Source: an uncultured Candidatus Saccharibacteria bacterium
GTDB lineage: Bacteria > Patescibacteriota > Minisyncoccia > Phycocordibacterales > CAYRGE01
Assembly (NCBI GenBank): GCA_964612415.1
Contig: CAZTCT010000001.1
Location: forward strand, 137,949 to 201,948
Direction: 5' to 3'
DNA: 64,000 bases
The notes below the pieces were generated by a model that saw only the letters and a program-made list of their open reading frames with translations, had not been told where the DNA came from and did no database searches. Of the stretch, positions 1,457-62,021 are shown piece after piece; the first letter of the stretch is position 1; each line of letters starts with the position of its first letter. A program made the position numbers and the translations under genes.

Positions 1457-2826
1457 TTTTTTCTTTAAAAAAGACAGAGCTACTTCTTGGAGTTTTTGTC
1501 TTCCTTTTTTATACAAGTCTTCTTGCGGCGATTGTTTTGGTGGGAAATGGGCGCGGGCTTCAAGCAGAAAATGTTTTTTCCCCTGAGGGGACGGATGCTC
1601 GCGAGTACGTTTCTCTGGCTCAAACATTAGTCTCCTCGCAACGGTATGCGATATCTCCTGATAGCCCCCCAGAGTATTTCAGGAGTCCTGGATATCCTAT
1701 GTTTATTGCCCCAATCCTTTCCGTAACGGATTCAACAGCTGTTCTTATTGTTGTCCAAATACTGCTAGTATCGGTTTCTGCTGTGTTTATTTATAAAATT
1801 GCGGCGGAATTATTTTCTCATTGGGTTGGCTTGGTCACTACCCTTATCTTTGTCTTAGATCCGGCAGTTATTACAACCTCACTCGTTACCCTTACCGAGC
1901 CTCTTTTTATAGCACTACTGCTTGGTACTACATGGGTTCTATTGCGGGAACACTCAACGAGAAACGTTATTTTGGCGGGAGTGCTTATGGGGGCACTTAT
2001 CCTTACACGCCCAGTAGGGATCTTTTTGGCCCCATTGTTTGTCTGCTTACTGATATATAAGGGGAATAAGGATTTAAAGACTATTTTGATAAGGAGTGCC
2101 GCCTTTGTTGGCGTAAGTGTCGTTGTTTTTGTTCCATGGATGATTAGGAATGTGTATCTTTCTGGGCATTTTTCACTTTCTTCCATATCGACCTATAACA
2201 TGCTTTTTTACAACGTAGTTGAGTTTGAAGTACAGAAAGGAGCCCCCAAAACAGAATTCATTAAAGGTCTTCAAGAACGCCTCGGGAGCAATAGTGATTT
2301 TGAGCTTCGGTCTTTTGACTATGCCGCAGAAGAACAAGCCCTTATCCACGAGTACCTTACGGGGCATGTTTTTTCGTACGCACTATTTCATCTGACAAAA
2401 ACAGCCCCCTTCTTCTTAGGGAGTAGTCTTGATGTTGCTGAGCGGCATTTATTTGGGCTTGGGCTTTTGGATAGGGAGCCAGGACCAAGTGCAAATATAT
2501 CTGGTCTTCTAATTTCAGGGGATGTAGAGGGTGTGATGTCTTTAATGCGCGAGCATTTTTGGATAACAGGGGAAAGAATTTGTTGGCTGCTACTCACAAT
2601 ACTTGCTCTTAGTTTGCCAGTGGTTCTGTTTTTTAAAAAAGATTCTCGCGCGGCAATCGCGCTGCTCTTCTCCCTGCTAATTCTTTTGTTTGCGATACTG
2701 GCTGGCCCTGTTTCGCACCCTCGATACCGAATCCCAGCAGAACCCTTCTTGCTCATTCTTGCCTTCGGCAACATTTATGTTATTAGTAAAGCGATTTGGG
2801 CCGCGTATGCCAAGAAATTTATATGA
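1453..2826 (+). CDS. Polytopic membrane glycosyltransferase, GT-C fold (ArnT/PMT, GT83/GT39-like)
   Basis: More than 10 predicted TM helices. The first extracytoplasmic loop carries a GTDAREY motif resembling the GT-C catalytic D-x-x-E-Y. The ATGA start/stop overlaps the pgk stop. The longer upstream start at 1432 is less likely. Confidence 0.5.
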   Translation: MIFSLKKTELLLGVFVFLFYTSLLAAIVLVGNGRGLQAENVFSPEGTDAREYVSLAQTLVSSQRYAISPDSPPEYFRSPGYPMFIAPILSVTDSTAVLIVVQILLVSVSAVFIYKIAAELFSHWVGLVTTLIFVLDPAVITTSLVTLTEPLFIALLLGTTWVLLREHSTRNVILAGVLMGALILTRPVGIFLAPLFVCLLIYKGNKDLKTILIRSAAFVGVSVVVFVPWMIRNVYLSGHFSLSSISTYNMLFYNVVEFEVQKGAPKTEFIKGLQERLGSNSDFELRSFDYAAEEQALIHEYLTGHVFSYALFHLTKTAPFFLGSSLDVAERHLFGLGLLDREPGPSANISGLLISGDVEGVMSLMREHFWITGERICWLLLTILALSLPVVLFFKKDSRAAIALLFSLLILLFAILAGPVSHPRYRIPAEPFLLILAFGNIYVISKAIWAAYAKKFI

Positions 2827-35114: not shown

Positions 35115-38100
35115 ATGAGTATGGAAGGAAGGCCAAGGATGCCATCAGAAGAGACCCCAGAAGGGAGTGGAATGACTCCTGAAGATACTAATTTAGAGAA
35201 TACTGAACGTGTTGAGCCCGATCTCCACGGGGCCGCTGAAGAGATTTTAGAACAAAGGGGTGAAACTGGAATTGAAGTTCCAGTTATTTCTGTTGGAGAT
35301 GAAGCGCAAGAAGATCCAGAGGGAGGTGTTTTAGAAGGAGAAGCTCTTGATAATGCTTTGCGAGAAGCGTTGCACGGAGATGACGCAAGGTTTGAGCAGA
35401 ATGTTCAGATAGAAACAGGTGAAATTGCTCCGGTTCAAGGAGAGCATAACGACAAGTATGTACTTCATGAAGAAAATGGAGCTCGTGTCTGGCGTAAAAA
35501 TAACGGAGATGAATCTACTCCAATACAAGAGGGGACTCCTGATGCGCAAAACGGATCAGAAGCACTTATAAACGACGGAGCGCTTGAAGGACAAGAAGAA
35601 GGTGAGGGTACACCTATTGATGCGGATGCCGAAAAGGCACAAGAACCGGCGGTGAGCAAGGAAGAAGTCTCAGCTACCCCAGAAAGTATAGAACGAGAAC
35701 CAGGGTCTCTCGCTGTTGCGCTTGAAGAGACCGCACAGAGTGTTGTTGCAGAAAAACAAGAACGGATGGAGGAGGCCCTCTCTCCTGAACAAATAGCGAC
35801 ACCAGAATATGCCAAGAAGGCAATTGATCACGAACTTGCTCGTTTAGGTATAAACCCGGAGGACATTGCAAAAGACGAAGCTTTCAAAGAATTTAACGAA
35901 CTCTCAGATGGACAGAAGCTTCTTGTTGCGCGCGATCTCAATAGATTTGCTTTCTCTGAATCAAAAATAAAAGCGCACGAGGAATTTAATAAGAGAAACC
36001 AGGAAGAAGGTGTTTTGAATGTAAAGAGAATTGCCCGCAATGTATTCCGCAACGTTAATATCGCTTCGTACCGGAAAGCGGAACTTAAAAAAGCGATGGC
36101 AGGGGGTGTGGGTATGCACGGAGAGACACTCAAAGTTCTTGCAGAAAAAGCCAAGATTGGTCCTGAGGTAGAGATTGACTCAGCGGGGAATCTCAATGTT
36201 CAGTATGCAAAACTTGAAGGCCTTTCTGCTGAAGAACAGAAGGTTGTGAGATTTTACAACAAAGTTGCAGGTAATTATGGCCGAACTCCTGCTGAGTGGG
36301 GCAACAAGAGCGCAACGAATGAGCAGAAAATGGAGTATTGGGCGAATAAAGAGGAGTACAACAGGGCAAGAAAAGAACTCTTGGCCCTTAAAGAGGCGAA
36401 GAGTTCTTCTGAAGATGCCATGCAGTATGTGAATAGTCTTGATGCTCTTGTAACACAGGACCAGTTTTTAAATACAGTCTCAGGAGAGAAACTTGAAGAA
36501 TCAATGCAAAGAGCTGCGACAGGGAGTGCTCTATGGCAAGGGTGGAAGGAAACGATTACTGAGAGAGGCATGTATGCCGCAGTTGGTGCGGGGACACGCT
36601 TTGCTGTTGTAGGTGCATTGGGGATTGCTGCTGTCCCAGTGATGGGTGCTACAGTTGCGCCTGTTGCCGTAGGAGCTATTGCTGCTTCTGCGCTTGTGGG
36701 ACGATGGATTGGGCGAAGACGCATGAGACAAACTCTAGATGAAAAAGAGATGCTTCGCCGCCATGGAGACAAGGCGTCTGAAGAGCAGAAAAATGTCTGG
36801 AAGGACAAACTTGCAAAGACAACTCGTGCAACAGACGGAGGGGATATCGAAAGTTATAAAAAGGGAGCGAATGAGCGTGGCAAAATCTTGGAGAAGCGCT
36901 ATGCAGAGCGGGGTATTACCGTTTCTGCAGAAGCGCTTGATGACAAGCTTGGGTTAGCTTTTGCGCAATTTGAGAAGGAGGAAGATCCTAAAAAGCGCAG
37001 TAAGGCGCTGGTATCTTTACGTGCACGTATTGGCTATACACAAGACAAGATCGATAAAGGGGAGGTTAACTTTGGCAATGGCGTAGACCAGCTTAAAAAT
37101 CAACTTGACCTCATTCAGGGGCTCTCAAGAGCACGCGCTCACTCAGTGATAGAAGACCCTGACGTTAAAAAAGAACTTGACGAGAAGATGGGCGAGCTTA
37201 CGAAGTATCAGGGGCACATGCGCAGCCGAGTTGAACAAGCCGAGAAGAAGAGGATCAACGCTGCGGGGAGGACAGGGGCTCTTATTGCAGCTACATTTAC
37301 TGGTGCATCTTATGCAATTACAGACTTTGTTATGTCTGGGAAAGGCGCTAACCTTGCAGATAATGCAAAGGAGTTTGCTGGGCATTTGAAAGCAAAACTT
37401 CCATATGGGCTTGGAGACGAAGAGCTCCACCGAGAGCTTGAGAGTTCAGCTGCTCGAGTCTATAACCCAGGTTCAGAGAATGGGAGCAATCTTTGGAATA
37501 TGATAGAACACGATCTTCGGGGAGATCTCAAAGGACTTGAGGGACATGAACGCGATGCCGTTATCATGGCTGGCTTGAATAAGTTTCGTGAACTTACCCC
37601 AGAGCAACTCAAAGAGATTGGTTTTTCATCAGCAAGTGGAGAAAATAATGTTGAGAATATATTAAAACTTGTGAGACCTACAGATCGCATTAATTTTTCG
37701 CGAGTTTACAATACAGCAGATCTGCACAATATTCTTGGACGTATGCACGCAGTGGCTCTTGAGAAGGGGGAAATGCCAGTCCCGGCGACAGGTTCTTCTG
37801 TTGTGGCAGAGAGTGCCACTTCATCTGGTACGCCAACTGCCCCAGCTCATGTGCCTAGTGGGGGGAAGGCGCCTTCTGTGAGCGAACTACCTTCGTCTGC
37901 AGGCAAAAGCGTACCACCTGAAGCTGCTGACATGCCACTTACGACACAGCGCGCTATTCCATCAGAGCCAAAAGGGAATGGTTCTATATTTAGTACTGAC
38001 GAGATTGAAAAGTATCGAGGATCAGGCGGCGGGAAAGTTGAACAAGTTGCGTATACTCCTCGGACTCCACAGGAAATCGTCAAAATCCCATCAAGTGATT

Positions 38101-39386
38101 TTGAACGACAGGTTATTTATACCGAGCTTAATAATGATGTGAATCTGATCGTGCCAGGTGGGGCAAGGGGCGCAAACTGGATGTATGTAAAAGGTGAATC
38201 AGTGGAGCGTCTAATGAATACTCGCCTTCAAGCCCCTCGTGCCGGGTATGTACCACAGCAGAGGAGTCCTTGGTCAGTAAGCGGAAGAATTCATATTGGT
38301 GGTCGCCATTCGGCATCTCAAGATTTTCTTAGAATTGAACATCGGCCCACACCTCCACCGCCAGTATATAGAGGTCCATTGCCAGTAGGACTTCGTTCTC
38401 CAGAGACAGTGGCGAATTTGCAAAGTTACATCAATGCCCTTGAAGAGCAGAGCGGTCTTTCATGGAGAAGGAGCGGCTACTCTGTTGAAAGATATATATA
38501 TGAGGCGACCAAAGTTTCAGGAAGGATGAACAATGTACCTGGCTTTGGCGACAACCCGATTCCTGGACCCGGCGGAGGACTCACCAGATCAAGCGGATGG
38601 TCTCAGGCTATTGCTGAGAACATGCGCAATAATGTCAACCAAGTTCCTAATGCAAAAGTTGCTGATGAATTTGTCAGAGACCATTTCAATGAATTCACAT
38701 CGCAATACTACTCTTCTCCAGAAGGAAGGAGTGATGCGGACCTCAATGTGATGCTTCAGAATGCGTACAAGATGCGCACCTCTCTTAATGAGCTCAACGA
38801 CAAATTTGGTATTTCTGATTATCAGGCGCGAAGCGAGCAGATTGAGGGAATCATCACAAAACTAGAGCGACAGACAGGGGCATCAAGTGGGGCTCCTCGC
38901 ATCGTGGCACGGGTATATGAAGAAAAGGATTTAACACCTTCTTCATTTAGCAAATTAGAACCTGGAGAGATTAAGGATATTCTCAATGTGCCTGTAGGCG
39001 AAGAAGAAGGGAAAGAGGTCATGAAGAATGTTGCCGATGAAGTAAATAAAATCTTCCAAACAAATGGCGCGCCAAAGAATGGGTTTGATTATGGAGAAGG
39101 AATTGGAAATATGAGTGCTGACTGGGAGGATATGAAAGGGAGGACTATAGATGAAATTCTCCATGCCAAGCTTCCTACCTCAAAGATCGTCGACGGCAAA
39201 ATCATTCCTCCAGAGGAGGGGGTCGGCATTCACTCTACGAAATTTTTGACGAAGGTACGCGCAGAGCTTATCCCCAAACTAGAATACCAAAGCGGTCTTC
39301 CTGCACATGGGCCAACTACACTTGAAGATTATATTAAGGATGCCCACGTACTTATAAAACGCGGACCTGACTTTAAGCCTGAATAA
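35115..39386 (+). CDS. Giant (1423 aa) protein: strongly acidic N-terminal region, central double-TM hairpin, long charged/coiled-coil and Pro/Gly-containing C-terminal region; function unknown
   Basis: Uninterrupted ORF. The first approximately 200 aa are Glu/Asp-rich. The hydrophobic segment GMYAAVGAGTRFAVVGALGIAAVPVMGATVAPVAVGAIAASALVGRWIGRRR would make two TM helices. It sits immediately downstream of the coupling-ATPase-like gene. Confidence 0.5.
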   Translation: MSMEGRPRMPSEETPEGSGMTPEDTNLENTERVEPDLHGAAEEILEQRGETGIEVPVISVGDEAQEDPEGGVLEGEALDNALREALHGDDARFEQNVQIETGEIAPVQGEHNDKYVLHEENGARVWRKNNGDESTPIQEGTPDAQNGSEALINDGALEGQEEGEGTPIDADAEKAQEPAVSKEEVSATPESIEREPGSLAVALEETAQSVVAEKQERMEEALSPEQIATPEYAKKAIDHELARLGINPEDIAKDEAFKEFNELSDGQKLLVARDLNRFAFSESKIKAHEEFNKRNQEEGVLNVKRIARNVFRNVNIASYRKAELKKAMAGGVGMHGETLKVLAEKAKIGPEVEIDSAGNLNVQYAKLEGLSAEEQKVVRFYNKVAGNYGRTPAEWGNKSATNEQKMEYWANKEEYNRARKELLALKEAKSSSEDAMQYVNSLDALVTQDQFLNTVSGEKLEESMQRAATGSALWQGWKETITERGMYAAVGAGTRFAVVGALGIAAVPVMGATVAPVAVGAIAASALVGRWIGRRRMRQTLDEKEMLRRHGDKASEEQKNVWKDKLAKTTRATDGGDIESYKKGANERGKILEKRYAERGITVSAEALDDKLGLAFAQFEKEEDPKKRSKALVSLRARIGYTQDKIDKGEVNFGNGVDQLKNQLDLIQGLSRARAHSVIEDPDVKKELDEKMGELTKYQGHMRSRVEQAEKKRINAAGRTGALIAATFTGASYAITDFVMSGKGANLADNAKEFAGHLKAKLPYGLGDEELHRELESSAARVYNPGSENGSNLWNMIEHDLRGDLKGLEGHERDAVIMAGLNKFRELTPEQLKEIGFSSASGENNVENILKLVRPTDRINFSRVYNTADLHNILGRMHAVALEKGEMPVPATGSSVVAESATSSGTPTAPAHVPSGGKAPSVSELPSSAGKSVPPEAADMPLTTQRAIPSEPKGNGSIFSTDEIEKYRGSGGGKVEQVAYTPRTPQEIVKIPSSDFERQVIYTELNNDVNLIVPGGARGANWMYVKGESVERLMNTRLQAPRAGYVPQQRSPWSVSGRIHIGGRHSASQDFLRIEHRPTPPPPVYRGPLPVGLRSPETVANLQSYINALEEQSGLSWRRSGYSVERYIYEATKVSGRMNNVPGFGDNPIPGPGGGLTRSSGWSQAIAENMRNNVNQVPNAKVADEFVRDHFNEFTSQYYSSPEGRSDADLNVMLQNAYKMRTSLNELNDKFGISDYQARSEQIEGIITKLERQTGASSGAPRIVARVYEEKDLTPSSFSKLEPGEIKDILNVPVGEEEGKEVMKNVADEVNKIFQTNGAPKNGFDYGEGIGNMSADWEDMKGRTIDEILHAKLPTSKIVDGKIIPPEEGVGIHSTKFLTKVRAELIPKLEYQSGLPAHGPTTLEDYIKDAHVLIKRGPDFKPE

Positions 39387-39432: not shown

Positions 39433-39909
39433 ATGACACACCCAAAAGAAGAACAGACACTTATCCTTATTAAGCCAGATGCTATTCATCGTGCGCTTGT
39501 AGGTGAGATCATCAAACGCTTTGAGATGAAAGGGCTCAAGATTATTGGCATGAAGATGATACAGCTAGAGGATGTCTTACTTGAATCACACTATGCACAC
39601 ATCAAAGACAAGCCATTTTTCGTGGGCATCAAGAAGTTTATGAAATCGTCTCCTGTGGTAGGCCTTGTGCTCTCGGGTATTAACGCGATATCGGCAACAC
39701 GTATCATTGTAGGACCCACGAAGGGATATGAAGCGGACGCGGGGAGCATTCGTGGAGATTTGTCTCTCTCAATCCAGTCTAATGTTGTGCATGCATCAGA
39801 TAGCGCTGAAGCTGCCAAGGAAGAGATCAAGAGATTCTTTAAAGATGAAGAGTTGTTCGAGTACGATAGAAGTGATTTCAACTACATTTACGCAGACGAG
39901 ACATTCTAG
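39433..39909 (+). CDS. ndk: Nucleoside diphosphate kinase
   Basis: LILIKPDAIHRALVGEIIKRFEMKGLKI and the active-site region NVVHASDS. 158 aa. Confidence 0.9.
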   Translation: MTHPKEEQTLILIKPDAIHRALVGEIIKRFEMKGLKIIGMKMIQLEDVLLESHYAHIKDKPFFVGIKKFMKSSPVVGLVLSGINAISATRIIVGPTKGYEADAGSIRGDLSLSIQSNVVHASDSAEAAKEEIKRFFKDEELFEYDRSDFNYIYADETF

Positions 39910-39944
39910 ATTTGCTCGGGGTTTCTTTGAAGGTGTATAATACT

Positions 39945-40135
39945 CTCGGGTTGCTTGGATTAATAAGTCCACTTTTGACACTCGTTAGGGAGTCTCTATT
40001 GGAACGCGCAGGGCATGCCGAAAGGCGTACCGAATGAGCGTTCTTGCGGGCACCCACCTTTATATTTAAAAGGGGGCTTCCGTACTCCAAGCAACCCTTT
40101 ACAACACTCGCCCGTGCGGCGAGTTTTGTATTTCA
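39945..40135 (+). ncRNA. Candidate structured small RNA (approximately 190 nt) with its own promoter, 11-bp 5'/3' closing stem and intrinsic terminator; identity unassigned (6S- or SRP-RNA-like size)
   Basis: Extended -10 promoter TTGCTC-N18-TATAAT at about 39912-39941. The 5' gggttgcttgg (39947-39957) is complementary to ccaagcaaccc (40086-40096). There is an internal GNRA-capped helix (ggcatgcc-gaaa-ggcgtacc) and a terminator ctcgcc-cgtg-cggcgag-ttttgtattt at 40107-40135. No ORF is present. Confidence 0.3.
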
Positions 40136-40158
40136 AGCTTTTTTGCATAAATTATTAT

Positions 40159-40545
40159 ATGTCTTTACGTAATTTTCCTACAGAACTTGCATATCTTGTT
40201 CTCGGCATATTTATCGTGAATACAGCGGCGGTATTTTGGGGCTGGTATTACATAGTTCCCTCTATTGATATCCCACTTCATCTGGCTGGAGGATTTTGGG
40301 TTGGGGGAAGTGGCATGTGGGGCTACTACGCGTTTTCCAAAAAAATATCTAAAAAACTCAGCGTCACGATAGTGGGGTCAATGCTGATTGCCATTGTCAT
40401 TGGCGCTCTTTGGGAGGGGTTTGAGTTCTATACCAATTTATTACTCGCTCGAGAGCCTTTCAGCGCGCTTGATACGATGGGAGACATGATATGCGATATA
40501 ATTGGCGGAGTATGTGCGGGCTGGTATATTTCTAGAAAACCATAA
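40159..40545 (+). CDS. Small polytopic membrane protein (approximately 128 aa, 4 TM; VanZ-like size/topology)
   Basis: Start chosen at MSLRNFPTELAYLVLGIFIVN, after the candidate RNA terminator. The upstream part of the track ORF overlaps that RNA and is rejected. Confidence 0.4.
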   Translation: MSLRNFPTELAYLVLGIFIVNTAAVFWGWYYIVPSIDIPLHLAGGFWVGGSGMWGYYAFSKKISKKLSVTIVGSMLIAIVIGALWEGFEFYTNLLLAREPFSALDTMGDMICDIIGGVCAGWYISRKP

Positions 40546-40553
40546 ACGAATAC

Positions 40554-41924
40554 ATGGACAAAAAACTCTCAATTACTTTTCATGGAGGAGCGCGTAAGGT
40601 TACCGGATCAAACTTTCTCGTCACTACACCCGAAATATCTTTTCTGGTTGACTGCGGACTCTTTCAAGGAGAGCAGGGTGATTCAGCACGGAATCAAGAG
40701 AAATTCCCATACGATCCGTCTTCTATCGGGGCCTTGTTTGTGACGCACGCGCATCTTGACCATATTGGGCGCATTCCGGCGCTAGTGAGCTCAGGATTTT
40801 CTGGGCCAATCTATTCAACACATCCAACGCGTGATATGGCAGAGCTTGTTTTTGCCGACGGGGTGCGCATCTTTGAATACAACGAAAGGACAAAAGGTAT
40901 TAAGCCGCCTTACACAAAAGCAGATGTTGCCAAGACGTTGAGTCTTTGGCAGCCGATTGAATACCACAAAAAAATAGAACTTAGTCCAAATGTAACTGTT
41001 TCCTTATTGAACTCAGGGCACATTCTTGGTTCTGCCATGGTGGATATTTCTTATGCAGGGAAGAGGGTTGTGTTCACTGGCGATCTTGGCAATTCTCCTG
41101 CGCCACTTCTGCAAGATGTTGAGTCAATTAAGGGGGCTGACTACTTAGTCATGGAAAGTGTATATGGCAATCGTACGCATGAAGGGCGAGAAGACAGAGT
41201 GCGTATTTTTGAAGAGATCATTGAGGAGACCATCAAGGCGAAGGGTGTGCTCATGATCCCCGCGTTTTCTATTGAGAGGACACAAAATCTTCTTTTTGAA
41301 CTTGATCACCTTGTGACCTCAAAGAAAATTCCGGACGTGCCTGTATTTTTGGACTCACCACTTGCGATAGGAATCACGGAAATTTACAAGAAATATCGCG
41401 GTTCATTTAATGAACGAGCACAGGACATCTTAGCAAATGATGGGACTGTCTTTGAATTCCCACGTCTCAAAAAGACCAAAGAAGTGGAAGACTCTATTGC
41501 CATTAATGACGCACCAGCACCCAAGATCATCATTGCAGGGTCGGGCATGTCGGATGGGGGACGCATTATGCATCATGAGAAGCGCTATCTGGCAGATCCT
41601 CACAATACGCTGCTACTTGCGGGGTTTCAGGCCGTGGGGACGCTTGGACGTGCACTTTCGGACGGGGCAAAAGAGGTTGAAATTGATGGAGCGAAAATTC
41701 CCGTTCGAGCACGTATTATCGCACTGCGCGGGTATTCTGCTCACTGTGACTCAGACGGGCTGCTTGAATTTGTGAACAATGGAGCTGATTCGCTCAAGCA
41801 GGTGTTTGTCGTGTTGGGAGAGCCGGAGAGCTCGTTTTTCCTTGCACAACGGATACAAGATTATTTGGGCGTAAAAGCTACGGTGCCAAATCAAGGGGAT
41901 ACAGTTGAGTTGCAATTTGATTAA
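40554..41924 (+). CDS. MBL-fold beta-CASP family RNA-metabolising hydrolase (RNase J / CPSF73-like)
   Basis: HAHLDHIGRIP (HxHxDH), a beta-CASP segment, and C-terminal RGYSAHCD (motif C). 456 aa. Confidence 0.75.
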   Translation: MDKKLSITFHGGARKVTGSNFLVTTPEISFLVDCGLFQGEQGDSARNQEKFPYDPSSIGALFVTHAHLDHIGRIPALVSSGFSGPIYSTHPTRDMAELVFADGVRIFEYNERTKGIKPPYTKADVAKTLSLWQPIEYHKKIELSPNVTVSLLNSGHILGSAMVDISYAGKRVVFTGDLGNSPAPLLQDVESIKGADYLVMESVYGNRTHEGREDRVRIFEEIIEETIKAKGVLMIPAFSIERTQNLLFELDHLVTSKKIPDVPVFLDSPLAIGITEIYKKYRGSFNERAQDILANDGTVFEFPRLKKTKEVEDSIAINDAPAPKIIIAGSGMSDGGRIMHHEKRYLADPHNTLLLAGFQAVGTLGRALSDGAKEVEIDGAKIPVRARIIALRGYSAHCDSDGLLEFVNNGADSLKQVFVVLGEPESSFFLAQRIQDYLGVKATVPNQGDTVELQFD

Positions 41925-41944
41925 GAGCACGAGATGATACTAGT

Positions 41945-42571
41945 ATGAATGAAAAAAAGCATGACCACCTAAAAGTAAAAATATGTGTTTCTGGCGCAGC
42001 TGAGACAGGACACTGTGGTATGGATGCGCTTGATCGCGCCAAAGATCTCGGACGAGAGATTATACGCAACAATGCAGTGATCGTGACTGGTGCAACCACA
42101 GGGTTCCCCATGTGGTCAGCTATTGGCGCGAAGGAAGAAGGCGGAATTTCAATCGGGCTTTCTCCTGCATCAACCGAGAAAGAGCATGTTGAAAGCTATC
42201 GTCTCCCACTAGACTACATGGACGTCATCATTTATACAGGATTTGGATATTCGGGGCGCAACCTTCTTCTTACCCGTTCGTCTGATGCGGTGATAGTGGG
42301 GTGTGGACGCATTGGGACCATCAACGAATTTACGATTGCGTATGAGGACCATAAGCCCATCGGCATCTTACAGGGGAGCTGGGAGACAGACGAGGTTATC
42401 AAGCTTATCTTAGATAAAGGGCATCGTGGCGATGGGAATGTTGTTTTCGATACTAATCCGAAGCGTCTTGTGGAGAAAGTGCTCAAGCTCGTAGAGGAGC
42501 AGAAGACGAGAGATAATTACGTCTATAAGAATGTAAAGATTGAAGGAGGAGGAGGGAAGCGAATCTACTAA
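41945..42571 (+). CDS. TIGR00725/LOG-family Rossmann-fold protein (SLOG superfamily)
   Basis: ICVSGAAETGH...VIVTGATTGFPMWSAIGAKEEGGISIGLSP...IYTGFGYSGRNLLL pattern of LOG/TIGR00725 proteins. Confidence 0.55.
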   Translation: MNEKKHDHLKVKICVSGAAETGHCGMDALDRAKDLGREIIRNNAVIVTGATTGFPMWSAIGAKEEGGISIGLSPASTEKEHVESYRLPLDYMDVIIYTGFGYSGRNLLLTRSSDAVIVGCGRIGTINEFTIAYEDHKPIGILQGSWETDEVIKLILDKGHRGDGNVVFDTNPKRLVEKVLKLVEEQKTRDNYVYKNVKIEGGGGKRIY

Positions 42572-45780: not shown

Positions 45781-45884
45781 CGGAGACTCCTCCTCTAGAA
45801 GGTGACTTCTGGGGGCACTCTAAACAATGGTGATATTGTTGTCAAAAACAAAAACGCCCACGAAAGGCGTTTTGTTGTTGGCTG

Positions 45885-46277
45885 TGGAGATGGGGGGATT
45901 CGAACCCCCGTGCAAAAGTGTTCCTCGAACGGTTCTACAAAGCGTAGTTTGTTTCATTTGTTTAGATGCAATGAGTAGAAAACAAACAAAATCTTCATTA
46001 CATCGATCCTCTACATTTCAAAATATTGTCGAGGCGAGCAATATTTCTACATCTGAAGATATAACACCTGTTTGATCATGTCAGATTCACAATCAGCAGA
46101 TGGCTACGCGCTATTTAGGCGTATGCAAACGCGAAGTCGTTCTTCGTAAAGTACGGAGAGACGAGCGCCCGCGCTTTTTGTGCGATATTTGCACTTTTGT
46201 TTGGCATGTTTTTCGAGAGTTGCCATCTCGGCTTTGCGCATAAGAGGGGAGTACCCTTGTCGATGCCTAGCATCCCC
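45885..46277 (-). ncRNA. ssrA: Transfer-messenger RNA (tmRNA, SsrA); inferred tag ending ...KNDFAFAYA-stop
   Basis: The minus-strand 5' end GGGGAUGCUAGGCAUCGACAAGGG parallels the E. coli tmRNA 5' GGGGCUGAUUCUGGAUUCGACGGG. The 3' end is ...GGGGGUUCGAAUCCCCCCAUCUCCA, a tRNA-like T-arm plus acceptor. It sits immediately downstream of smpB. An internal ORF ends GCA-UAC-GCC-UAA. Confidence 0.7.
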
Positions 46278-46730
46278 TTATTGAAAACGGGATTTTATTT
46301 CTCTTTCAACGTCCCGAGCAGTATCGCGCTTCTTAATGGTTTCGCGCTTGTCGTGTTTCTTTTTGCTTCTAGCGAGACCCAAGGAGAGCTTGATATGCCT
46401 ATTTTTAGTATATAACGAAATAGGCACTATTGTCAAGCCCTTCTGGGATTCTTGCGAGGCGAGCCGCTCAATCTCCTCTTTGTTGAGGAGGAGCTTTCTG
46501 TTGCGGAGTGGGTCAAAATCTTTCGGCGCATTATTTTTTTGAAACGCAGGGATATCAGCTCCCACGAGAAATGCTTCGCCGCCACGGACGAGTACGCGTG
46601 CGCCTTCAAGGGAGCCGTGTTTTGCGCGGAGCGTCTTCACCTCAAATCCGTGCAGGGAAATACCGGCCTCCCATTCCTCGAGGATGTCATAGTCAAGCCG
46701 CACCTTTTTTCGCTCTACTAATATAGGCAT
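46278..46730 (-). CDS. smpB: SsrA-binding protein SmpB
   Basis: Full-length match to SmpB (GISLHGFEVKTLR...LLLNKEEI...LARSKKKHDKRE). Its stop codon abuts the predicted tmRNA 5' end. Confidence 0.9.
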   Translation of the reverse strand: MPILVERKKVRLDYDILEEWEAGISLHGFEVKTLRAKHGSLEGARVLVRGGEAFLVGADIPAFQKNNAPKDFDPLRNRKLLLNKEEIERLASQESQKGLTIVPISLYTKNRHIKLSLGLARSKKKHDKRETIKKRDTARDVEREIKSRFQ

Positions 46731-48782: not shown

Positions 48783-48817
48783 AAAAACGGCTCAACCGAG
48801 CGGTTGAGCCGTTTTTT
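48783..48817. terminator. Palindromic terminator element, family copy 4 (aaaaacggctcaaccgagcggttgagccgtttttt)
   Basis: Same stem as copies 2 and 3 with one central substitution (gatc to gagc), between ftsH(+) and the tRNA(-). Confidence 0.6.
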
Positions 48818-48818
48818 C

Positions 48819-48894
48819 TGGTCCGCCTGGCAGGACTCGAACCTACAACCACGGAGATATAAGCTCCGTGCTCTAACCATTGAGCTACAGGCGG
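48819..48894 (-). tRNA. tRNA with anticodon UAU (tRNA-Ile, AUA-reading); CCA encoded
   Basis: Cloverleaf: CCGCCUG-UA-GCUC-AAUGGUUA-GAGC-A-CGGAG-CUUAUAU-CUCCG-UGGUU-GUAGG-UUCGAGU-CCUGC-CAGGCGG-A-CCA. 7/4/5/5-bp stems, U33, A37. Confidence 0.7.
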
Positions 48895-49010
48895 CTTCTG
48901 GCTTGACTATAGTATACAAAAAGTATTGTCCGAGCAATGCATGTTTGTATCCACAGCAAGAAATAAATCTCTCCTATCTAAGAGGGTATAATGTGGGCAT
49001 ATACTTTTTT

Positions 49011-52000
49011 ATGAAGCGCGCGCTTCTTGCTCTGCTTAAAACATTGTTCATTTCTTGCGTTCTTCTTTTTGGAGGTACGCTTGCATTTGCTCAGACTATT
49101 TCTTATACACCGCTTGCTCCTTTGCCTGGAATCAATGATAGTGGTGGGCCAATTACCCTTACCACGTATCTAAGCGGGCTCTTTTATCTTGGACTTGGTA
49201 TTGCAACTATTTTGGCTGTGGTGATGATCGTCTTTGCTGGCGTGCAAATGATCGCAAGCGCAGGCAATGAAGCGTGGCGAAGCGCAGCAAAAGAAAGAAT
49301 TAAAAATGCATTATTTGGCTTGCTCCTTGCTTTGTTTGCATGGCTTATTATTTTTACAGTGAATCCACAAATTCTTGGGGTGCTCTCAACCGGGTTTACG
49401 CTCCAGAGCTCTCCATTTGAGCCGCGTATTCCTGGCACAGGAGGGTGGACTCCAGCAGGTGGGTTCACTCCGCCGCTCGGCACTACACTACCTGGCGGGA
49501 CTGGTTCGGGCGGATCTGGGTTTCCCGTTGGAACATCTGAGCCAAATCCATTTGATATTGACCAGATCATGAGAGATATTGAGAGTGGCAAGCTTGTTCG
49601 AGATCAAATAGAAATTGACCCATCAAGTGACGGGTCGCTTATCCGAACTTGTGCTCAAAAAGAACAAAATGATGGCGAGTGTGCAGCTGCGGATGTGAAT
49701 GGCGATGGGGCTGTGACCATTCTTGACTACAGTTTTCTTATTGATACAACAACAAGATTTGATCTCAATATGGACGGTGTCATTGACCCGTATCCATATA
49801 GACCAATTGAGAGCATGTGCTACATACACGATGGCAGGTACAATCTTTTGGGCATAAATAGTGCTGGAGAGCCGACGACAATCATTGGGATTGATTCAAC
49901 TCCTACACGCACCACGGGGTTCGTATTTGGATTTAATAAGTATGATCCATTTGTAGTCACTGTAGGGGACACTCAATATGAGATACCAAGTAGTGATTAT
50001 CAATATAACTATACACCACGTAATCTTTGGTGGGATTATTTAAGAGCAGATACAGAGCCACGACTTATACAACCACCACTATCAGCGGACGAAATATTCA
50101 ACTTAACTGGCTCTGGTTTGCCACCGGGGCCGCCAGCATTCCCGGGAGACAATCTTCCTCCTCCGCCACCACCTATCCCCAATATTGGCGACGGCGCTCT
50201 TCCACCACCACCACCCGACTTTCCACCAGGTGGGGCGAGTTCTTCTTCGGGGACAGGGAGTACTGGCACCACAGGATCCGTGCCTTCAGGGAGTATCCCA
50301 GTAGTATCTCCTGGGGGTATAACTAGTTTGCCGCTTGTCTCAGAGACGTACTCTCAGAATCAATGTTTTGCAAGTTCGTACGGGACTCGTGTTGGGTTTA
50401 CCATAGCGGAAATTGACATGCTCACAAAAGTTCTCCAGAGCTCTACTGGCGGGGTTCCTGCAACGACAAATTATTATCTCGATCTTAATAAATTGAGTGC
50501 TAATGTTGGGGGATGTTTTGTAAATGGTGCAACATTTGAATTCCTTGGCGGGGATTTCCCTGACAGCTTTAATTTTGGTAGTGGCACCCTTCCTCGGTGG
50601 ATGCATCCTGTGTACTCACATTATTTGTTTAATAATGACTTTTGGCCAAACCCGGACAATTTTTCATTCGGACAATTCTTCTCATTATTTAATAATGACA
50701 GAATCTATGCTTTAGCGGGGTGTAATGTGCAAAGATTCCTCCCGAGCTCCAGTAATCCTGGGCCATTCAGTGCCTATGATCCGATTACCTATACAGAATT
50801 CATGGATAGACCACAGTACATGACAGATACAACCGCACCTCTGCAAATCTTCGGGGCGGCACTTTACGCGACGCTCGTGCAGGCTGACCTCAATCATGAT
50901 GGACGTGTCAATCTTGCAAGCATCGGAGCTCCAACAGGAGATGCTACGCCAGAAGAAATTTCAGCGTGTCTTTCACAAGACCCGGAGAATTTATCAGCAG
51001 AGTGCCAGTCATTAGATATTACCTACGAAGATTTTAGTGGTGACAATGATGATCTTGCGATACTCAACCGCTGTATCACGCAGGATACTGCCACAGGTCC
51101 AGTGGGGGATTGTGTTCAAGCAGACTTCAACCAAGATGGGCATGTTACGACGGCAGACCATAACGGACTTTCTGCGTTGCTCGGCCTTGTGGGGCTAACT
51201 GAGGATCTGCGCACGGAAGGTCTAAGCAGAGCTCCTAATGGAGTAGTCCCTGTTCAAGACTTTGATATCTTACTTTGGACTCCCGACACAACCTATTCTG
51301 ACGCTGACATTCTCAATTTCTGTCTTGGGAAGAAAAAGTGGGGAGGGTGTGAGACGTCCGATCTTGATGGAGATGGACGTATTGATGCAAATGCTCCACC
51401 CCAGGCAACGCGGACCGATGCAGCAATCAACTTCAATTGGGGGTCAGGGAGTCCTATGTCTGGCATTGGGAATGATTGGTTTATTGCCCGATGGACAGCA
51501 GATGTAGATCTTCCAGCTGGAGATTACCGCTTCACGGTGACTGTTGATGACGGGGTTCGTGTGTATGTAGACGACAGACTCATTATTGATAAGTGGAAGA
51601 ACCAAAACTCTCCTACATATACAGCAGATATGACTTTAGCTGCCGATACGCACAATATTCGCGTTGAATATTATGAAGCACGCAATGCGGCGCTTATACA
51701 ATTTGACTTTGGTCTTGTGGGAGGCTCTCCAGTCTCTGTCCCCGGAGGATATGCTGCAGAATTTTGGAACATGGCAAGTAATGCCCGCGGAGCGTCACCT
51801 GCTATTCCTACGGGTGATCAACTTTTGATGAATGATATCAAGAAGTATGACATCAATGGCGACGGGATCATCTCCTTTGAAGGCAATCTTGTTCACCTCA
51901 CCGCACTCTCAACTACTATTGAGGTGGGTGGTAGAGTGCGTTTGGATTGGGATACTTCACGTGTTACGGATTGTGTTGCATCAAGTGAGCCTGCTGGGCT

Positions 52001-52931
52001 CTGGTCTGGGCCAAAGGCACTCAATGATAGTGAGATCAGTCCAATTTTAAATCAAAAAACAGCGTTCACTCTTACATGTACTAATGAACGTACAGGCTTA
52101 CCGATGTCTAATACTGTTAAAGTAGACGCTGTAGATACCACACCAATTGAGTTTAATCCAGATAACATCACTATTTCAGTATCTCCTTCATCAGTCTCTG
52201 CAGGAGATAGTGCGCGTATTTCTTGGAATGCCATTGGGGCCACAAGCTGTACCGCATCAGGAGGATGGAATCCCGTCATCAACACCTTTGGCACATATCC
52301 AGCAGATAATGTCCAAACAACCCAAACATTTGTCATCACTTGCGAACGAGATGGCGTGTCGGGAACTGCAAGCACTACGCTTGAGGTGGTACCAAGGGTT
52401 CCTGTCACATTGCTCGCTGCTCCAAGCGATGTTGCAATGAATGGATCAGCAAAAATTTCATGGGTTGCTTCAAATGTGCGACAAGGAAGAGATGGTGTGT
52501 GCACTGCTTCAGGGGATTGGAGTGGCTCTTATCGCGCCTCTGGAGAAGTTACAGTGAATAATCTAACTGCGACGAGCACGTTCTTTATGACTTGTGGGGG
52601 AGAGACTGCATCTGTTGTCGTCACCGTGAGACCATCTGTTTCTGGTGGAGGGTTTATTCCGGAAGCTATCGTTCTCTCTGCTACGCCTCCGCAAATCAAT
52701 CCAGGGTCTGTTGTTTTCCTCACATGGAGCGCACCTGGTGCAACCAATTGTATAGCAAGTCATCCGGTAGGGAGCCCTACTGTTCCCGGGTGGACTGGAC
52801 TCAAGGAGAGTGGAGGATTTGAACAATATACACTCCCTGCTTCAATTATTTCTGATACCATTGAATTTGCTCTTTCCTGTACGGATGGGACAAATAGTGG
52901 CTCAAAAACAGCAAGCATTGTCGTAAACTAG
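49011..52931 (+). CDS. Giant secreted/surface protein (1306 aa): signal peptide, VirB2/TrbC-pilin-like double-TM N-terminal domain, Pro-rich linker, dockerin/EF-hand-like Ca-binding repeats, PA14 domain, C-terminal Ig-like domains
   Basis: Start set at MKRALLALL... (signal peptide). The upstream part of the track ORF overlaps the tRNA. Hydrophobic pair LFYLGLGIATILAVVMIVFAGV / LFGLLLALFAWLIIFTV. Repeats DVNGDGAVTILD, DLNHDGRVNL, DFNQDGHVT and DLDGDGRID. PA14-like NFNWGSGSPMSG...FIARWTADVDLPAGDYRFTVTVDDGVRVYVDDRLIIDKW...HNIRVEYYE. Confidence 0.6.
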   Translation: MKRALLALLKTLFISCVLLFGGTLAFAQTISYTPLAPLPGINDSGGPITLTTYLSGLFYLGLGIATILAVVMIVFAGVQMIASAGNEAWRSAAKERIKNALFGLLLALFAWLIIFTVNPQILGVLSTGFTLQSSPFEPRIPGTGGWTPAGGFTPPLGTTLPGGTGSGGSGFPVGTSEPNPFDIDQIMRDIESGKLVRDQIEIDPSSDGSLIRTCAQKEQNDGECAAADVNGDGAVTILDYSFLIDTTTRFDLNMDGVIDPYPYRPIESMCYIHDGRYNLLGINSAGEPTTIIGIDSTPTRTTGFVFGFNKYDPFVVTVGDTQYEIPSSDYQYNYTPRNLWWDYLRADTEPRLIQPPLSADEIFNLTGSGLPPGPPAFPGDNLPPPPPPIPNIGDGALPPPPPDFPPGGASSSSGTGSTGTTGSVPSGSIPVVSPGGITSLPLVSETYSQNQCFASSYGTRVGFTIAEIDMLTKVLQSSTGGVPATTNYYLDLNKLSANVGGCFVNGATFEFLGGDFPDSFNFGSGTLPRWMHPVYSHYLFNNDFWPNPDNFSFGQFFSLFNNDRIYALAGCNVQRFLPSSSNPGPFSAYDPITYTEFMDRPQYMTDTTAPLQIFGAALYATLVQADLNHDGRVNLASIGAPTGDATPEEISACLSQDPENLSAECQSLDITYEDFSGDNDDLAILNRCITQDTATGPVGDCVQADFNQDGHVTTADHNGLSALLGLVGLTEDLRTEGLSRAPNGVVPVQDFDILLWTPDTTYSDADILNFCLGKKKWGGCETSDLDGDGRIDANAPPQATRTDAAINFNWGSGSPMSGIGNDWFIARWTADVDLPAGDYRFTVTVDDGVRVYVDDRLIIDKWKNQNSPTYTADMTLAADTHNIRVEYYEARNAALIQFDFGLVGGSPVSVPGGYAAEFWNMASNARGASPAIPTGDQLLMNDIKKYDINGDGIISFEGNLVHLTALSTTIEVGGRVRLDWDTSRVTDCVASSEPAGLWSGPKALNDSEISPILNQKTAFTLTCTNERTGLPMSNTVKVDAVDTTPIEFNPDNITISVSPSSVSAGDSARISWNAIGATSCTASGGWNPVINTFGTYPADNVQTTQTFVITCERDGVSGTASTTLEVVPRVPVTLLAAPSDVAMNGSAKISWVASNVRQGRDGVCTASGDWSGSYRASGEVTVNNLTATSTFFMTCGGETASVVVTVRPSVSGGGFIPEAIVLSATPPQINPGSVVFLTWSAPGATNCIASHPVGSPTVPGWTGLKESGGFEQYTLPASIISDTIEFALSCTDGTNSGSKTASIVVN

Positions 52932-53017: not shown

Positions 53018-56000
53018 TTGTGTATGATGCGTAAATTCCTTCCGATTTTTGCTTTGACCTTAGTTGCTTCCGCTAGTTTTTTGCTCTCTCCTTCATTAAG
53101 TCGCGCGCAAACGACACTCTCTGAGGAGGAGCAGCTCGCGCAAATGGCCTCATTGCTGCAAGCGCTGCAGTCTGTGGTCAATACACTAAGCGCTGCGTCA
53201 GGGCAGAGTGCGCAGGGTGTTCCGCCACCGCCACCTCCGCCACCATCACCTGCAGGTGATGGATACTTTGGGGAATATTGGAGCACTCCTTCTGCGGGAG
53301 CGTCACCTGCGATACCAACAACTGCGCCAACCGCCACTCGTCTTGATACAAGCATTAACTTCTCTTGGGGGTCGGGGTCTCCTATGTCGAGTATCCCCTC
53401 CGATCACTTTATTGTTCGTTGGACAAAACAGCAGGATTTTTCGGGAGGGGACTATCTATTTAGTGTAAATGCCGATGATGGCGTGCGTTTGTATATAGAT
53501 GACCAGCTCGTTATTAATCAATGGATCAACCAATCCGCAACAACATATACCGCCGGGCGAACGCTTGCTGCAGGGACTCATACATTGCGAATTGAATATT
53601 ACGAAGCAGCTGGCTCTGCGACGATGCAGTTTAGCTTTACTCAAACAGCTGTTGCTCCTCCGGTTACCCCAGCCCCCACCGTCACCCTCACCGCAAACCC
53701 AACTTCAATCACACAAGGACAATCATCCACCCTCACCTGGAGCTCAACCAATGCCACAAGCTGTACCGCATCAGGCGGATGGACAGGCACCAAGACAACG
53801 TCAGGTACTCAAGCAGTCTCACCAACCGCAAACACTACCTACACCCTCACTTGTACAGGAGCAGGTGGAAGTGCAAACCAGAGTGTGACGGTGGGGGTGA
53901 GTGCAAACCCTGCACCAACGGTTACCTTTACCGCAAACCCAACTAGTACGACCGCTTCTCAGGGCGCAACTCTTTCGTGGAGCTCAACCAATGCCACAAG
54001 CTGTACCGCATCAGGCGGATTTTTGTGGACAGGAAGTCGCGCATTGTCTGGCTCTCAATTTATTACCCCTGAATCAACCACTACCTTCACTCTTGCATGT
54101 ACTGGGGCAGGTGGAACTACCACAAAAACGGCCACCGTTACGGTTGTCTCTTCTGGAACTACAAGTGGTCAGCTTTCTGGGAGCGCAAGCGTAAAGGCTT
54201 CGTCGCAGAACACCGATCTTTCGTCAGAAGGCACTACTGATTGGGTTCATTGGGGTTTATCAATCCCAACAAGTGTGAATCGAAAGTCTGGAGTGACGGG
54301 GCAGATTGGTTCTATGACGACCATTGGTGCAGCCTCTCTCAAGCGCTACGCTGACGATCGTGCGAAAGTATCTTGGGTCGGCGGTACGCCTACTGCAAGT
54401 ACAGGGAGTACTCCTGCCGGAGTGTACATAAAAGTAAATGGAAGTGGTTACACATTCACTGTTCCTGCAGATACGACAACACGCACACTAAAAATTTATC
54501 TTGGTGCGTGGAATGCGCAAGGTCTATTCCAAGCTTTTCTCAATGACAACAGTGCGAGTCCATACTCGGTGATTGTTGATGCTGGGTCAACGGGGACAGC
54601 AACAGATCGTGTCATTACGCTCACATATAAAGCTGCGTCAGCAGGGCAATCCCTGACAGTGCGCTACACACTTTTTGATGATTATGGGCTTGACGGGAAC
54701 ATCACTTTACAAGCAGCTACGCTTCAAGGTGTTTCTTCCACCCCAGCCCCCACCGTCACCCTCACCACAAACCCAACTTCAATCACACAAGGACAATCAT
54801 CCACCCTCACCTGGAGCTCAACCAATGCCACAAGCTGTACCGCATCAGGCGGATGGACAGGCACCAAGACAACGTCAGGTACTCAAGCAGTCTCACCAAC
54901 CGCAAACACTACCTACACCCTCACTTGTACAGGAGCAGGTGGAAGTGCAAACCAGAGTGTGACGGTGGGGGTGAGTGCCGCAACGGCCTACAATCTTGTT
55001 TACAGTACATCAGCGAGCCGCTCAAACCCCGCCGCTCTTAATGGCGCGGTAGTTTCGGGAGGTATCTATGTATTCTTGACCCCAGAGACGAACATAACTG
55101 GGGATGTGCTCTTTTATATAGATAACGTTTCTGGCAGTGGTACTGCGTATAAGACAGAATCAAACGCTCCGTATGATCTTGCGGGTACAAACACAAGTAA
55201 TGGAAGTGCGGCGCCGTACAACACAGCACAACTTTCTAATGGAACTCATACTGTTACCGTGCGACTTAACACGAATACGGTACTTACCTCAACGTTTACT
55301 GTGGCGAACAGCTCTTCCACCCCAGCCCCCACCGTCACCCTCACCACAAACCCAACTTCAATCACACAAGGACAATCATCCACCCTCACCTGGAGCTCAA
55401 CCAATGCCACAAGCTGTACCGCATCAGGCGGATGGACAGGCACCAAGACAACGTCAGGTACTCAAGCAGTCTCACCAACCGCAAACACTACCTACACCCT
55501 CACTTGTACAGGAGCAGGTGGAAGTGCAAACCAGAGTGTGACGGTGGGGATAGAGCTCGGGTATTTTGGAGAGTATTGGGATGTACCAACGGCGGGAGCC
55601 TCTCCTTCAATCCCAAGCACTGCACCAACATTTACGCGCATTGACCCAGCAATTGATTTTGATTGGACTACGAATGCACCAGGTACCTCGGTCGCCGCTG
55701 ACCACTTCATTGTACGCTGGACACGAAATGTTGATTTTGTCGCGGGAACATATCGCTTTACTGCATCAAGCGATGATGGGGTGCGCGTGTACGTTGACAA
55801 TCAACTACTTATAAATGACTGGACTAATCATGGCGTACGCACCTATGTGAATGACCTGACCCTTTCTGCGGGCAGTCATGCATTGCGCATTGAGTATTAT
55901 GAAAATACAGGCAGTGCGGTCGCGCAATTTAGCTTCGCACCAGTAACCTCTACCGGGAGTGTTGATACACAAGCTCCAACAGTAGTTATGACCTCTCCAT

Positions 56001-61930: not shown

Positions 61931-61935
61931 CCTAC

Positions 61936-62021
61936 GGAGGCGGAAGGATTCGAACCTTCGGACCAGTTTCCCGGTCAGCAACTTAGCAGGTTGCTGCATT
62001 CGACCGCTCTGCCACGCCTCC
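61936..62021 (-). tRNA. tRNA-Ser (anticodon GCU), class II with long variable arm, G73 discriminator; CCA not encoded
   Basis: GGAGGCG-UG-GCAGAGCGGUCGAAUGC-A-GCAAC-CUGCUAA-GUUGC-UGACCGGGAAACUGGUCC-GAAGG-UUCGAAU-CCUUC-CGCCUCC-G. Confidence 0.75.

Follow-up and report, generated by a model that had tools for sequence, protein, structure and literature searches.

Within a 64-kb stretch of contig CAZTCT010000001.1 (64,000 nucleotides (nt), hereafter the window), the gap downstream of ndk holds a small RNA gene that we read, with a probability of roughly 65%, as a divergent, miniaturised 6S-type RNA of Parcubacteria/Paceibacteria, within the Candidate Phyla Radiation (CPR)/Patescibacteria. The RNA body spans 150 nt on the plus strand (39948-40097, from the 5' strand through the 3' strand of its closing stem). 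This reading draws on sequence comparison and structure modelling; the RNA very probably works in the manner of 6S, its membership in the 6S family is likely, and RNA polymerase binding is what the model would predict. A first-pass annotation had proposed a discrete structured RNA at this place with the architecture of 6S RNA or of the small signal recognition particle (SRP) RNA. All the elements it described are present in the sequence, with coordinates 1-3 nt off, and of the two architectures the first fits (a rod, a central loop and a GGG...CCCACCU core), whereas SRP RNA gives no match at E <= 10.

The window RNA has a family of relatives, which we retrieved through the neighbouring beta-CASP protein by a genome-collection scan, from contigs of closer homologs, and from 80 metagenome loci found by beta-CASP alignment. 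Homologs of the RNA occur at about 75 related Parcubacteria/Paceibacteria loci, nearly always between ndk and a DUF2238/beta-CASP gene pair. With the single window sequence as query, nhmmer found no match in the first ten loci, those of the genome-collection scan, and the first homolog was detected with a 16-nt BLAST word at L001, the closest of the ten by its beta-CASP protein (53% identity), where a clear copy of the RNA lies upstream of the same gene pair and not beside ndk. No RNA copy was found within 4 kb at the more distant beta-CASP loci L002-L010 (at most 49% identity; the last three are Dictyoglomota). At L011, L012 and L013 the order is ndk, gap, DUF2238, beta-CASP, and the RNA sits inside every gap. 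A covariance model built from five sequences (R1) gave full-length, same-strand matches in about 57 of the 80 syntenic metagenome loci, and a second model from 45 sequences (R2) gave 70 matches at E <= 0.001; the window RNA, which these searches find once in the 64 kb, scores 132.7 bits with R1 and 65.2 bits with R2. Fifteen loci lack a confident match, ten of them with less than 650 nt of upstream sequence; L038 has a weak, genuine copy and L054 an inverted one. Where a metagenome locus offers at least 1 kb of upstream sequence, the RNA is present in 67 of 70 cases. It is also found in other assemblies of the window's own organism and at beta-CASP loci that NCBI labels Kaiserbacteria, Lloydbacteria, Vogelbacteria (GCA_016181465.1) and Parcubacteria.

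Family members are diverse in sequence (pairwise identity median 53%, minimum 31%) and measure 110-167 nt from stem to stem, with a median of 122 nt. The compensatory changes that the first-pass annotation had proposed to look for in related intergenic regions are there, on model-guided and MAFFT alignments alike. In the R2 model alignment of 70 sequences (68 distinct), which is itself fitted to the model, 89.0% of pairing cells can pair, compared with 73.6% in column shuffles (0/500 as high) and 37-56% when the partners are slid against each other; both sides change in 22 of 27 pairs, and double-change cells number 269 against 79 expected. All 12 model pairs of the closing helix change on both sides, with 93.5% of cells pairing, and double changes occur in all four pairs of the GUCC/GGGC helix. 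As a control, the model pairs were projected onto a MAFFT alignment never fitted to structure, on which 79.1% of cells pair (69.3% shuffled, 32-55% slid) and double-change cells reach 181 against 65. RNAalifold run on this alignment alone recovered de novo the outer eight pairs of the closing stem (columns 1-8 with 201-209) and, beyond that, just the top of the apical hairpin. A CCU/GGG helix that it also drew was rejected as spurious, the product of a one-column misalignment of GGGAG.

Run on five sequences, RNAalifold did not reproduce the minimum free energy (MFE) fold of the window RNA. Its consensus, with double changes in 13 of 28 pairs, places a GUCC/GGGC helix inside the closing stem, then a large internal loop whose 3' strand carries a small hairpin, and on the far side of the loop a GGG-GUCU/GGGC-CCC helix. 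The conserved fold is modelled as a rod, in which a closing/downstream helix of about 12-21 bp leads to an internal loop of about 13-18 nt per strand and then to an apical arm. In the dominant subgroup the downstream helix is extended (AUUACC/GGUAAU), a part that the family model aligns poorly. Unconstrained MFE folding recovers the closing stem in 66 of 67 members and the inner helix in 56, and a stricter criterion classes 59 of the 67 as rods, whose loop has a median size of 13/13 nt; the 5' loop strand has 16-22 nt in the model alignment and a median of 13 nt in the MFE rods. The apical arm, 29-77 nt long, forms a hairpin in every member but varies in sequence. The GAAA-capped helix described at first pass was found in the window, as GGCAUGCC-GAAA-GGCGUACC at 40012-40031 with one C-A mismatch; its loop is not conserved. 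Some arms carry insertions. At L014 (1488-1794, plus strand) an apical insertion of about 185 nt forms a long near-perfect hairpin and leaves the core intact, the whole RNA folding at -118.7 kcal/mol (z = -8.8), and one insertion-bearing member measures 307 nt. The L014 insertion has neither an Rfam match nor an open reading frame (ORF) and may be a palindromic mobile element; L017 has the core of L014 without it, and L054 (2059-2275, minus strand) bears an apical insertion of about 130 nt.

Which bases never change? GGG is fixed in 68 of 68 sequences and followed by A in 66; CCC is likewise fixed in all 68 and preceded by A in 62 (C-A-CCC), and the 3' loop strand then starts with A (67), C (67), C/U and U (68). 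These bases, GGG-A...C-A-CCC-ACCU, flank the internal loop on its apical side, and they match the positions written in upper case in the Rfam RF00013 (6S RNA) consensus 'GGGagccc...gggcaCCCACCU' at the same structural place; the A/A mismatch inside the inner helix is shared with that consensus as well. For the conservation of GGG...CCCACCU among 6S RNAs we rely on the Rfam consensus line and the Escherichia coli ssrS sequence, which reads 'UUCACCUUGAACCAAGG' (...CACAUUC-ACCUUGAACCAAGG...) at the equivalent place. There the 3' side of the bubble starts with ACCU and goes on to a CCUUG/CAAGG hairpin, its CC pairing with a downstream GG. 6S RNAs are rods made of a closing stem, a central bubble and an apical stem, and the 3' bubble strand serves as a '-10-like' recognition element (PMC8876501). 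In a permissive Rfam scan of 401 nt (E <= 10, 4227 families), 6S RNA was the only match covering the element, and alignments to RF00013 run end to end, within 1 nt of the RNA bounds, in the window (13.3 bits) and at L015 (20.5 bits), against a gathering cut-off of 46.4 bits.

The RNA appears to be its own gene. In 45 of 46 members the first paired base is preceded, at 12-13 nt, by a TAnnnT box, usually with TTGC or TTGA at -35 and with the spacing seen in the window, and 44 of 46 have a hairpin with a T-run no more than 90 nt downstream. The distance from the RNA start to the beta-CASP gene start further downstream varies between about 160 and about 1500 nt, DUF2238 is absent at some loci, and at L054 the RNA, apical insertion included, is inverted relative to its neighbour gene. 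A stand-alone gene with its own predicted sigma-70-type promoter and its own terminator, as the first-pass annotation had suggested, is therefore strongly supported by comparison of the loci. G-U pairs abound in the closing stem (pair 3:378 is GC in 36 sequences and GU in 27), so the plus strand is the functional one; the weaker model matches on the minus strand are the expected echo of a symmetric rod.

If the element does act as 6S RNA does, the rod would mimic an open promoter and occupy the housekeeping RNA polymerase holoenzyme. A short product RNA (pRNA) would then be copied from the 5' loop strand together with the helix strand next to it, and the unwinding would free the 3' strand of the downstream helix to pair with the ACCU region as a hairpin, which might help to release the polymerase, as in E. 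coli 6S RNA. In that RNA, the lower strand of the downstream helix templates the pRNA, and a hairpin between the freed upper strand and the -10 region drives release (PMC9670815); in Bacillus subtilis 6S-1 RNA a small 3'-bubble hairpin is preformed in the free RNA (PMC8876501). We examined the release step in silico by blocking a 14-nt footprint, ten nt of the 5' strand of the downstream helix and four loop bases. In 49 of 59 members the 3' loop strand then gave rise to a local hairpin of at least 6 bp, 39 of these 49 hairpins using nucleotides freed from the downstream helix, and the inner helix was kept in 57 of 59; isolated 3' segments formed a median of 8 bp, against 3.7 bp with the loop shuffled. 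The parallel with the E. coli hairpin between -10 region and downstream helix and with the B. subtilis 6S-1 hairpin lends the model mechanistic plausibility. Small size is no obstacle either: truncated 6S-1 RNAs reduced to the bubble with a short arm on either side remain capable of the 6S cycle in vitro (PMC8876501), which makes a natural 6S RNA of 110-150 nt plausible.

Several results weigh against a 6S assignment. The Rfam search that the first-pass annotation had named as a check capable of overturning its proposal found no family at the element at curated thresholds; across the whole 64 kb, the gathering thresholds passed only a transfer-messenger RNA (tmRNA) and two tRNAs, with no second 6S match in the window. 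The 6S match at the element is far below threshold, its 13.3 bits corresponding to an all-family E of 1.8, the level of noise, and its per-family E of about 4e-4 is meaningful only as a pre-specified test of the first-pass hypothesis. Eleven of 13 members tested, the dominant subgroup included, have no 6S match at E <= 10, and the two that do both belong to the window's subgroup. Conversely, model R2 with filters off found no match on E. coli ssrS (L094, 284-466), the sole 6S RNA tested. The median of 122 nt is well under the roughly 200 nt of the 6S literature (PMC8876501) and also short of a typical 6S span of about 160-200 nt. Because GGG and CCC are constant, their pairing has to be deduced from the covarying pairs beside them. 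The window copy itself is awkward: folding its 191-nt stretch gives -81.1 kcal/mol, where dinucleotide shuffles average -53.8 +/- 4.1 (z = -6.75; 0/200 as good), a stability beyond what chance would give, but the MFE fold departs from the conserved one in the 3' half, the consensus fold being about 6 kcal/mol less stable than its competitor. Finally, a 6S-like shape does not guarantee 6S function, as Ms1 illustrates, an RNA with a 6S-like fold that binds core polymerase (PMC4191392).

The competing structure in the window is a predicted hairpin at 40045-40084 on the plus strand (UGCGGG..CCC.CCUUU / AAAGGGGG..UCCGUA), which would sequester the invariant CCCACCU. In most relatives this 3' hairpin is not the MFE structure, and the window is an exception.

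The Ms1 precedent, a bubble rod with a different polymerase partner (PMC4191392), also speaks for the alternative that survives best, namely a conserved, lineage-specific trans-acting RNA that has some partner other than the sigma-70 holoenzyme. It could bind core polymerase, as Ms1 does, or it could work with, or be processed by, the neighbouring beta-CASP nuclease and SLOG protein. We consider this possible, at well under even odds. It would account for the failed Rfam 6S threshold, for a family model blind to E. coli ssrS and for an RNA much shorter than known 6S RNAs, and it gains from the very tight synteny with DUF2238, beta-CASP and SLOG genes (67/70 loci) and from RNase J1, a beta-CASP enzyme that is reported to process the B. 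subtilis 6S RNAs (PMC10578484). Yet the invariant bases are exactly those conserved in 6S RNAs, in the same structural position, and the loop size and potential release hairpin also suit 6S; the synteny may be no more than a consequence of a conserved gene order (adk, map, ndk ... rplT, rpmI, infC), and nothing in the RNA indicates a nuclease-specific role. A narrower proposal, which we regard as rather improbable, is a CPR-specific rod RNA that is no 6S orthologue at all, either a convergent promoter mimic or the same core put to use with another partner, and tied to the beta-CASP/SLOG proteins as substrate, guide or regulator.

A cis-acting leader, a riboswitch or attenuator controlling DUF2238/beta-CASP through the terminator, is very unlikely. 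The RNA does lie upstream of these genes and on their strand at nearly all loci, it does end in a terminator, and in the window the ATG at 40159 follows the T-run after only about 25 nt. The terminator, however, forms a hairpin of its own, 3' of a closing stem of 12-21 bp that is very stable and offers it no competing pairing, the distance to the beta-CASP start ranges over about 160-1500 nt, DUF2238 is missing from some loci, L054 has the RNA on the opposite strand, L012 has an opposite-strand ORF annotated between the RNA and the next gene, and no riboswitch family matches at E <= 10. In both the window and L001, a -10-like box ending 6 nt upstream of the DUF2238 ATG further suggests that the gene has a leaderless promoter of its own. 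We rejected the leader on the variable distance, the loci that lack DUF2238, the inverted L054 copy and a closing stem that does not compete with the terminator. SRP (4.5S) RNA can be set aside almost entirely: it shares only the general shape (paired ends, a hairpin-like outline and, in the window copy, a GNRA tetraloop), no SRP family, RF00169 included, matches at E <= 10 in the 401-nt search, the GAAA loop is not conserved in an apical arm that varies and tolerates insertions of 130-185 nt, and the conserved bases lie at the internal loop and not near the apex, where SRP domain IV would sit.

Protein coding was rejected too, since the ORFs in the region are mechanical and the homologs differ by indels and paired substitutions, not in codon-like patterns. 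The ORF start at 40015, which the first-pass annotation had already doubted, is almost certainly wrong judging from related sequences: the same protein is called with 128 amino acids (aa) (ATG 40159) in other assemblies of the organism, and homologous membrane-protein genes all begin 3' of the RNA and its terminator.

Table 1. Predicted features of the RNA gene, in window coordinates
Feature	Position	Strand	Basis and remarks
-35-like box TTGCTC	39912-39917	+	read from sequence; 3/6 consensus match; 18-nt spacer to -10
-10 box TATAAT	39936-39941	+	ends 6 nt before first paired base of RNA
Closing stem, 5' strand GGGUUGCUUGGA	39948-39959	+	pairs with 40086-40097
Inner downstream helix (P2-like), 5' strand GUCC	39967-39970	+	pairs with GGGC 40074-40077; RNAalifold, five sequences
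Central loop, 5' strand, 17 nt, ACUUUUGACACUCGUUA	39971-39987	+	unpaired in consensus structure; presumed pRNA template under 6S model
Inner helix, 5' strand GGG-A-GUCU	39988-39995	+	GGG invariant; next 3 pairs covary strongly
Variable apical arm	39996-40047	+	contains GAAA-capped hairpin 40012-40031
Inner helix, 3' strand GGGC-A-CCC	40048-40055	+	CCC invariant; covariation of adjacent pairs
Central loop, 3' strand: near-invariant ACCU, then small hairpin CCUUU/AAAGG	40056-40073	+	family alignment
Inner downstream helix, 3' strand GGGC	40074-40077	+	RNAalifold and covariation
Closing stem, 3' strand UCCAAGCAACCC	40086-40097	+	perfect complement of 39948-39959
Intrinsic terminator	40106-40135	+	7-bp G+C-rich stem 40106-40124, then T-run TTTGTATTTC

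At the locus itself (Table 1), ndk (Pfam NDK, E = 7e-49) ends at 39909, directly upstream of the RNA promoter, and the predicted primary transcript extends past the terminator to about 40131, for a length of about 184 nt. The promoter was described at first pass as an extended -10 type: TATAAT and TTGCTC are present with the 18-nt spacer, but TG abuts TATAAT directly (GTG-TATAAT, not TGnTATAAT), which is not the canonical extended form, and a consensus promoter scan did not list the TTGCTC box, which matches at only three of six positions. The 5' strand of the closing stem begins at 39948, not near 39945. The claimed 11-bp complementarity of the ends is perfect, with GGGUUGCUUGG from 39948 meeting its complement CCAAGCAACCC at 40087-40097, not 40086-40096, and an extra A-U pair brings the stem to 12 bp. 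The G+C-rich terminator is where it was expected, with its stem and T-run.

Many of the RNA promoters share a motif, GTC(A/T)A-N2-3-TTGC (e.g. gtcaatattgca and tgtctagttgcg), that continues into the -35 box and may act as an operator or as an extension of the -35 element. It is seen at L001 (about 188-200), L011 (about 1058-1070), L012 (about 2033-2045), L013 (about 2312-2325) and many metagenome loci; the window promoter lacks it because the ndk stop codon occupies the site. Downstream in the window come the 128-aa membrane protein (no Pfam match here; its homologs are called DUF2238), the beta-CASP metallo-beta-lactamase (40554-41924) and a SLOG-family protein. The -10-like box before the DUF2238 ATG (window 40147-40161, ATAAAT; L001 about 497-514, TATAAT) suggests that the DUF2238 mRNA is leaderless, with a putative promoter right after the RNA terminator. 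At L012, a 72-aa ORF without a Pfam match lies antisense just 3' of the RNA and terminator (2260-2478, minus strand) and is probably a spurious call in a non-coding gap. The wider conserved block reads adk, map, ndk, RNA, DUF2238, beta-CASP, SLOG, then rplT, rpmI and infC on the opposite strand. The beta-CASP/RMMBL protein, whose precomputed Pfam matches include Anti-Pycsar_Apyc1, is almost always followed by the SLOG 'LDcluster4' protein (window 40554-42571, plus strand; L011, L097, L099, L100).

Elsewhere in the window, a full-length tmRNA lies at 45882-46277 on the minus strand (RF00023, 121.8 bits, E = 4e-47), abutted by a 150-aa ORF (46278-46730, minus strand) that might be smpB, an SmpB gene being present in the same neighbourhood in L100. 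The two tRNA genes are at 48822-48894 (70.6 bits) and 61935-62021 (57.9 bits), both on the minus strand, the second with a long variable arm. Three very large ORFs lie on the plus strand (35115-39386, 1423 aa; 48804-52931, 1375 aa; 53018-58306, 1762 aa), the first of which has no Pfam match and ends 47 nt before ndk.

What would a small 6S-type RNA mean for these organisms? CPR/Patescibacteria have tiny genomes with few recognisable transcription regulators, and a promoter-mimic RNA, if the reading is right, would give them a global, growth-state-linked brake on the housekeeping polymerase. We found no published 6S RNA from CPR, Patescibacteria, Parcubacteria or Saccharibacteria in a literature search of incomplete coverage. 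A natural minimal 6S RNA of about 110-150 nt would help to define what the polymerase must recognise, in agreement with the in-vitro sufficiency of a bubble and two short arms. With the family covariance model, a gene overlooked by current pipelines could also be annotated in many metagenome-assembled genomes, and ORF mis-calls would disappear, among them the start at 40015 and the antisense ORF of 72 aa at L012.

Clade-restricted rod RNAs have precedents. The 6S-Flavo RNA of Bacteroidota is a 6S variant that the general 6S model misses; it comes from another clade, with another sequence, and apart from 6S itself no Rfam family, 6S-Flavo included, matched the element at E <= 10. Ms1 is about 300 nt long and known only from Actinobacteria. 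Set beside the window family by description, it is likewise a rod with a central bubble resembling an open promoter, has a sigma-A-like promoter and partners with RNA polymerase, but it binds the core enzyme and not the holoenzyme (PMC4191392).

Closer still is 6S RNA proper (SsrS, RF00013; E. coli 6S, B. subtilis 6S-1), another stand-alone gene with a sigma-70-type promoter and another rod with a closing stem, a large central loop and an apical stem bearing small bulges. In both, the helix that borders the loop on its apical side is G-C-rich, and ACCU comes next on the 3' strand (GGGag...caCCCACCU in Rfam, ...UUCACCU in E. coli); the small hairpin in the 3' loop strand recalls B. subtilis 6S-1, and the predicted formation or extension of a hairpin on opening of the downstream helix recalls E. 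coli 6S. The family differs in size, with a median of 122 nt (150 in the window) against about 180-200 nt and with both arms shorter, and in its genomic neighbours, which are ndk/DUF2238/beta-CASP here and zapA/5-formyl-THF cyclo-ligase (fau) in E. coli. It is similar in overall design to the engineered minimal 6S-1 RNAs (Ganapathy et al. 2022, PMC8876501), which also hold a bubble between short helical arms and which in vitro still bind the sigma-A holoenzyme, template pRNA and undergo release. Those constructs were truncated artificially and have about 10-fold lower affinity, whereas the family described here would be a natural, conserved compact form; it keeps an apical arm of about 17-20 bp, which on our model could reach a '-35'-like contact.

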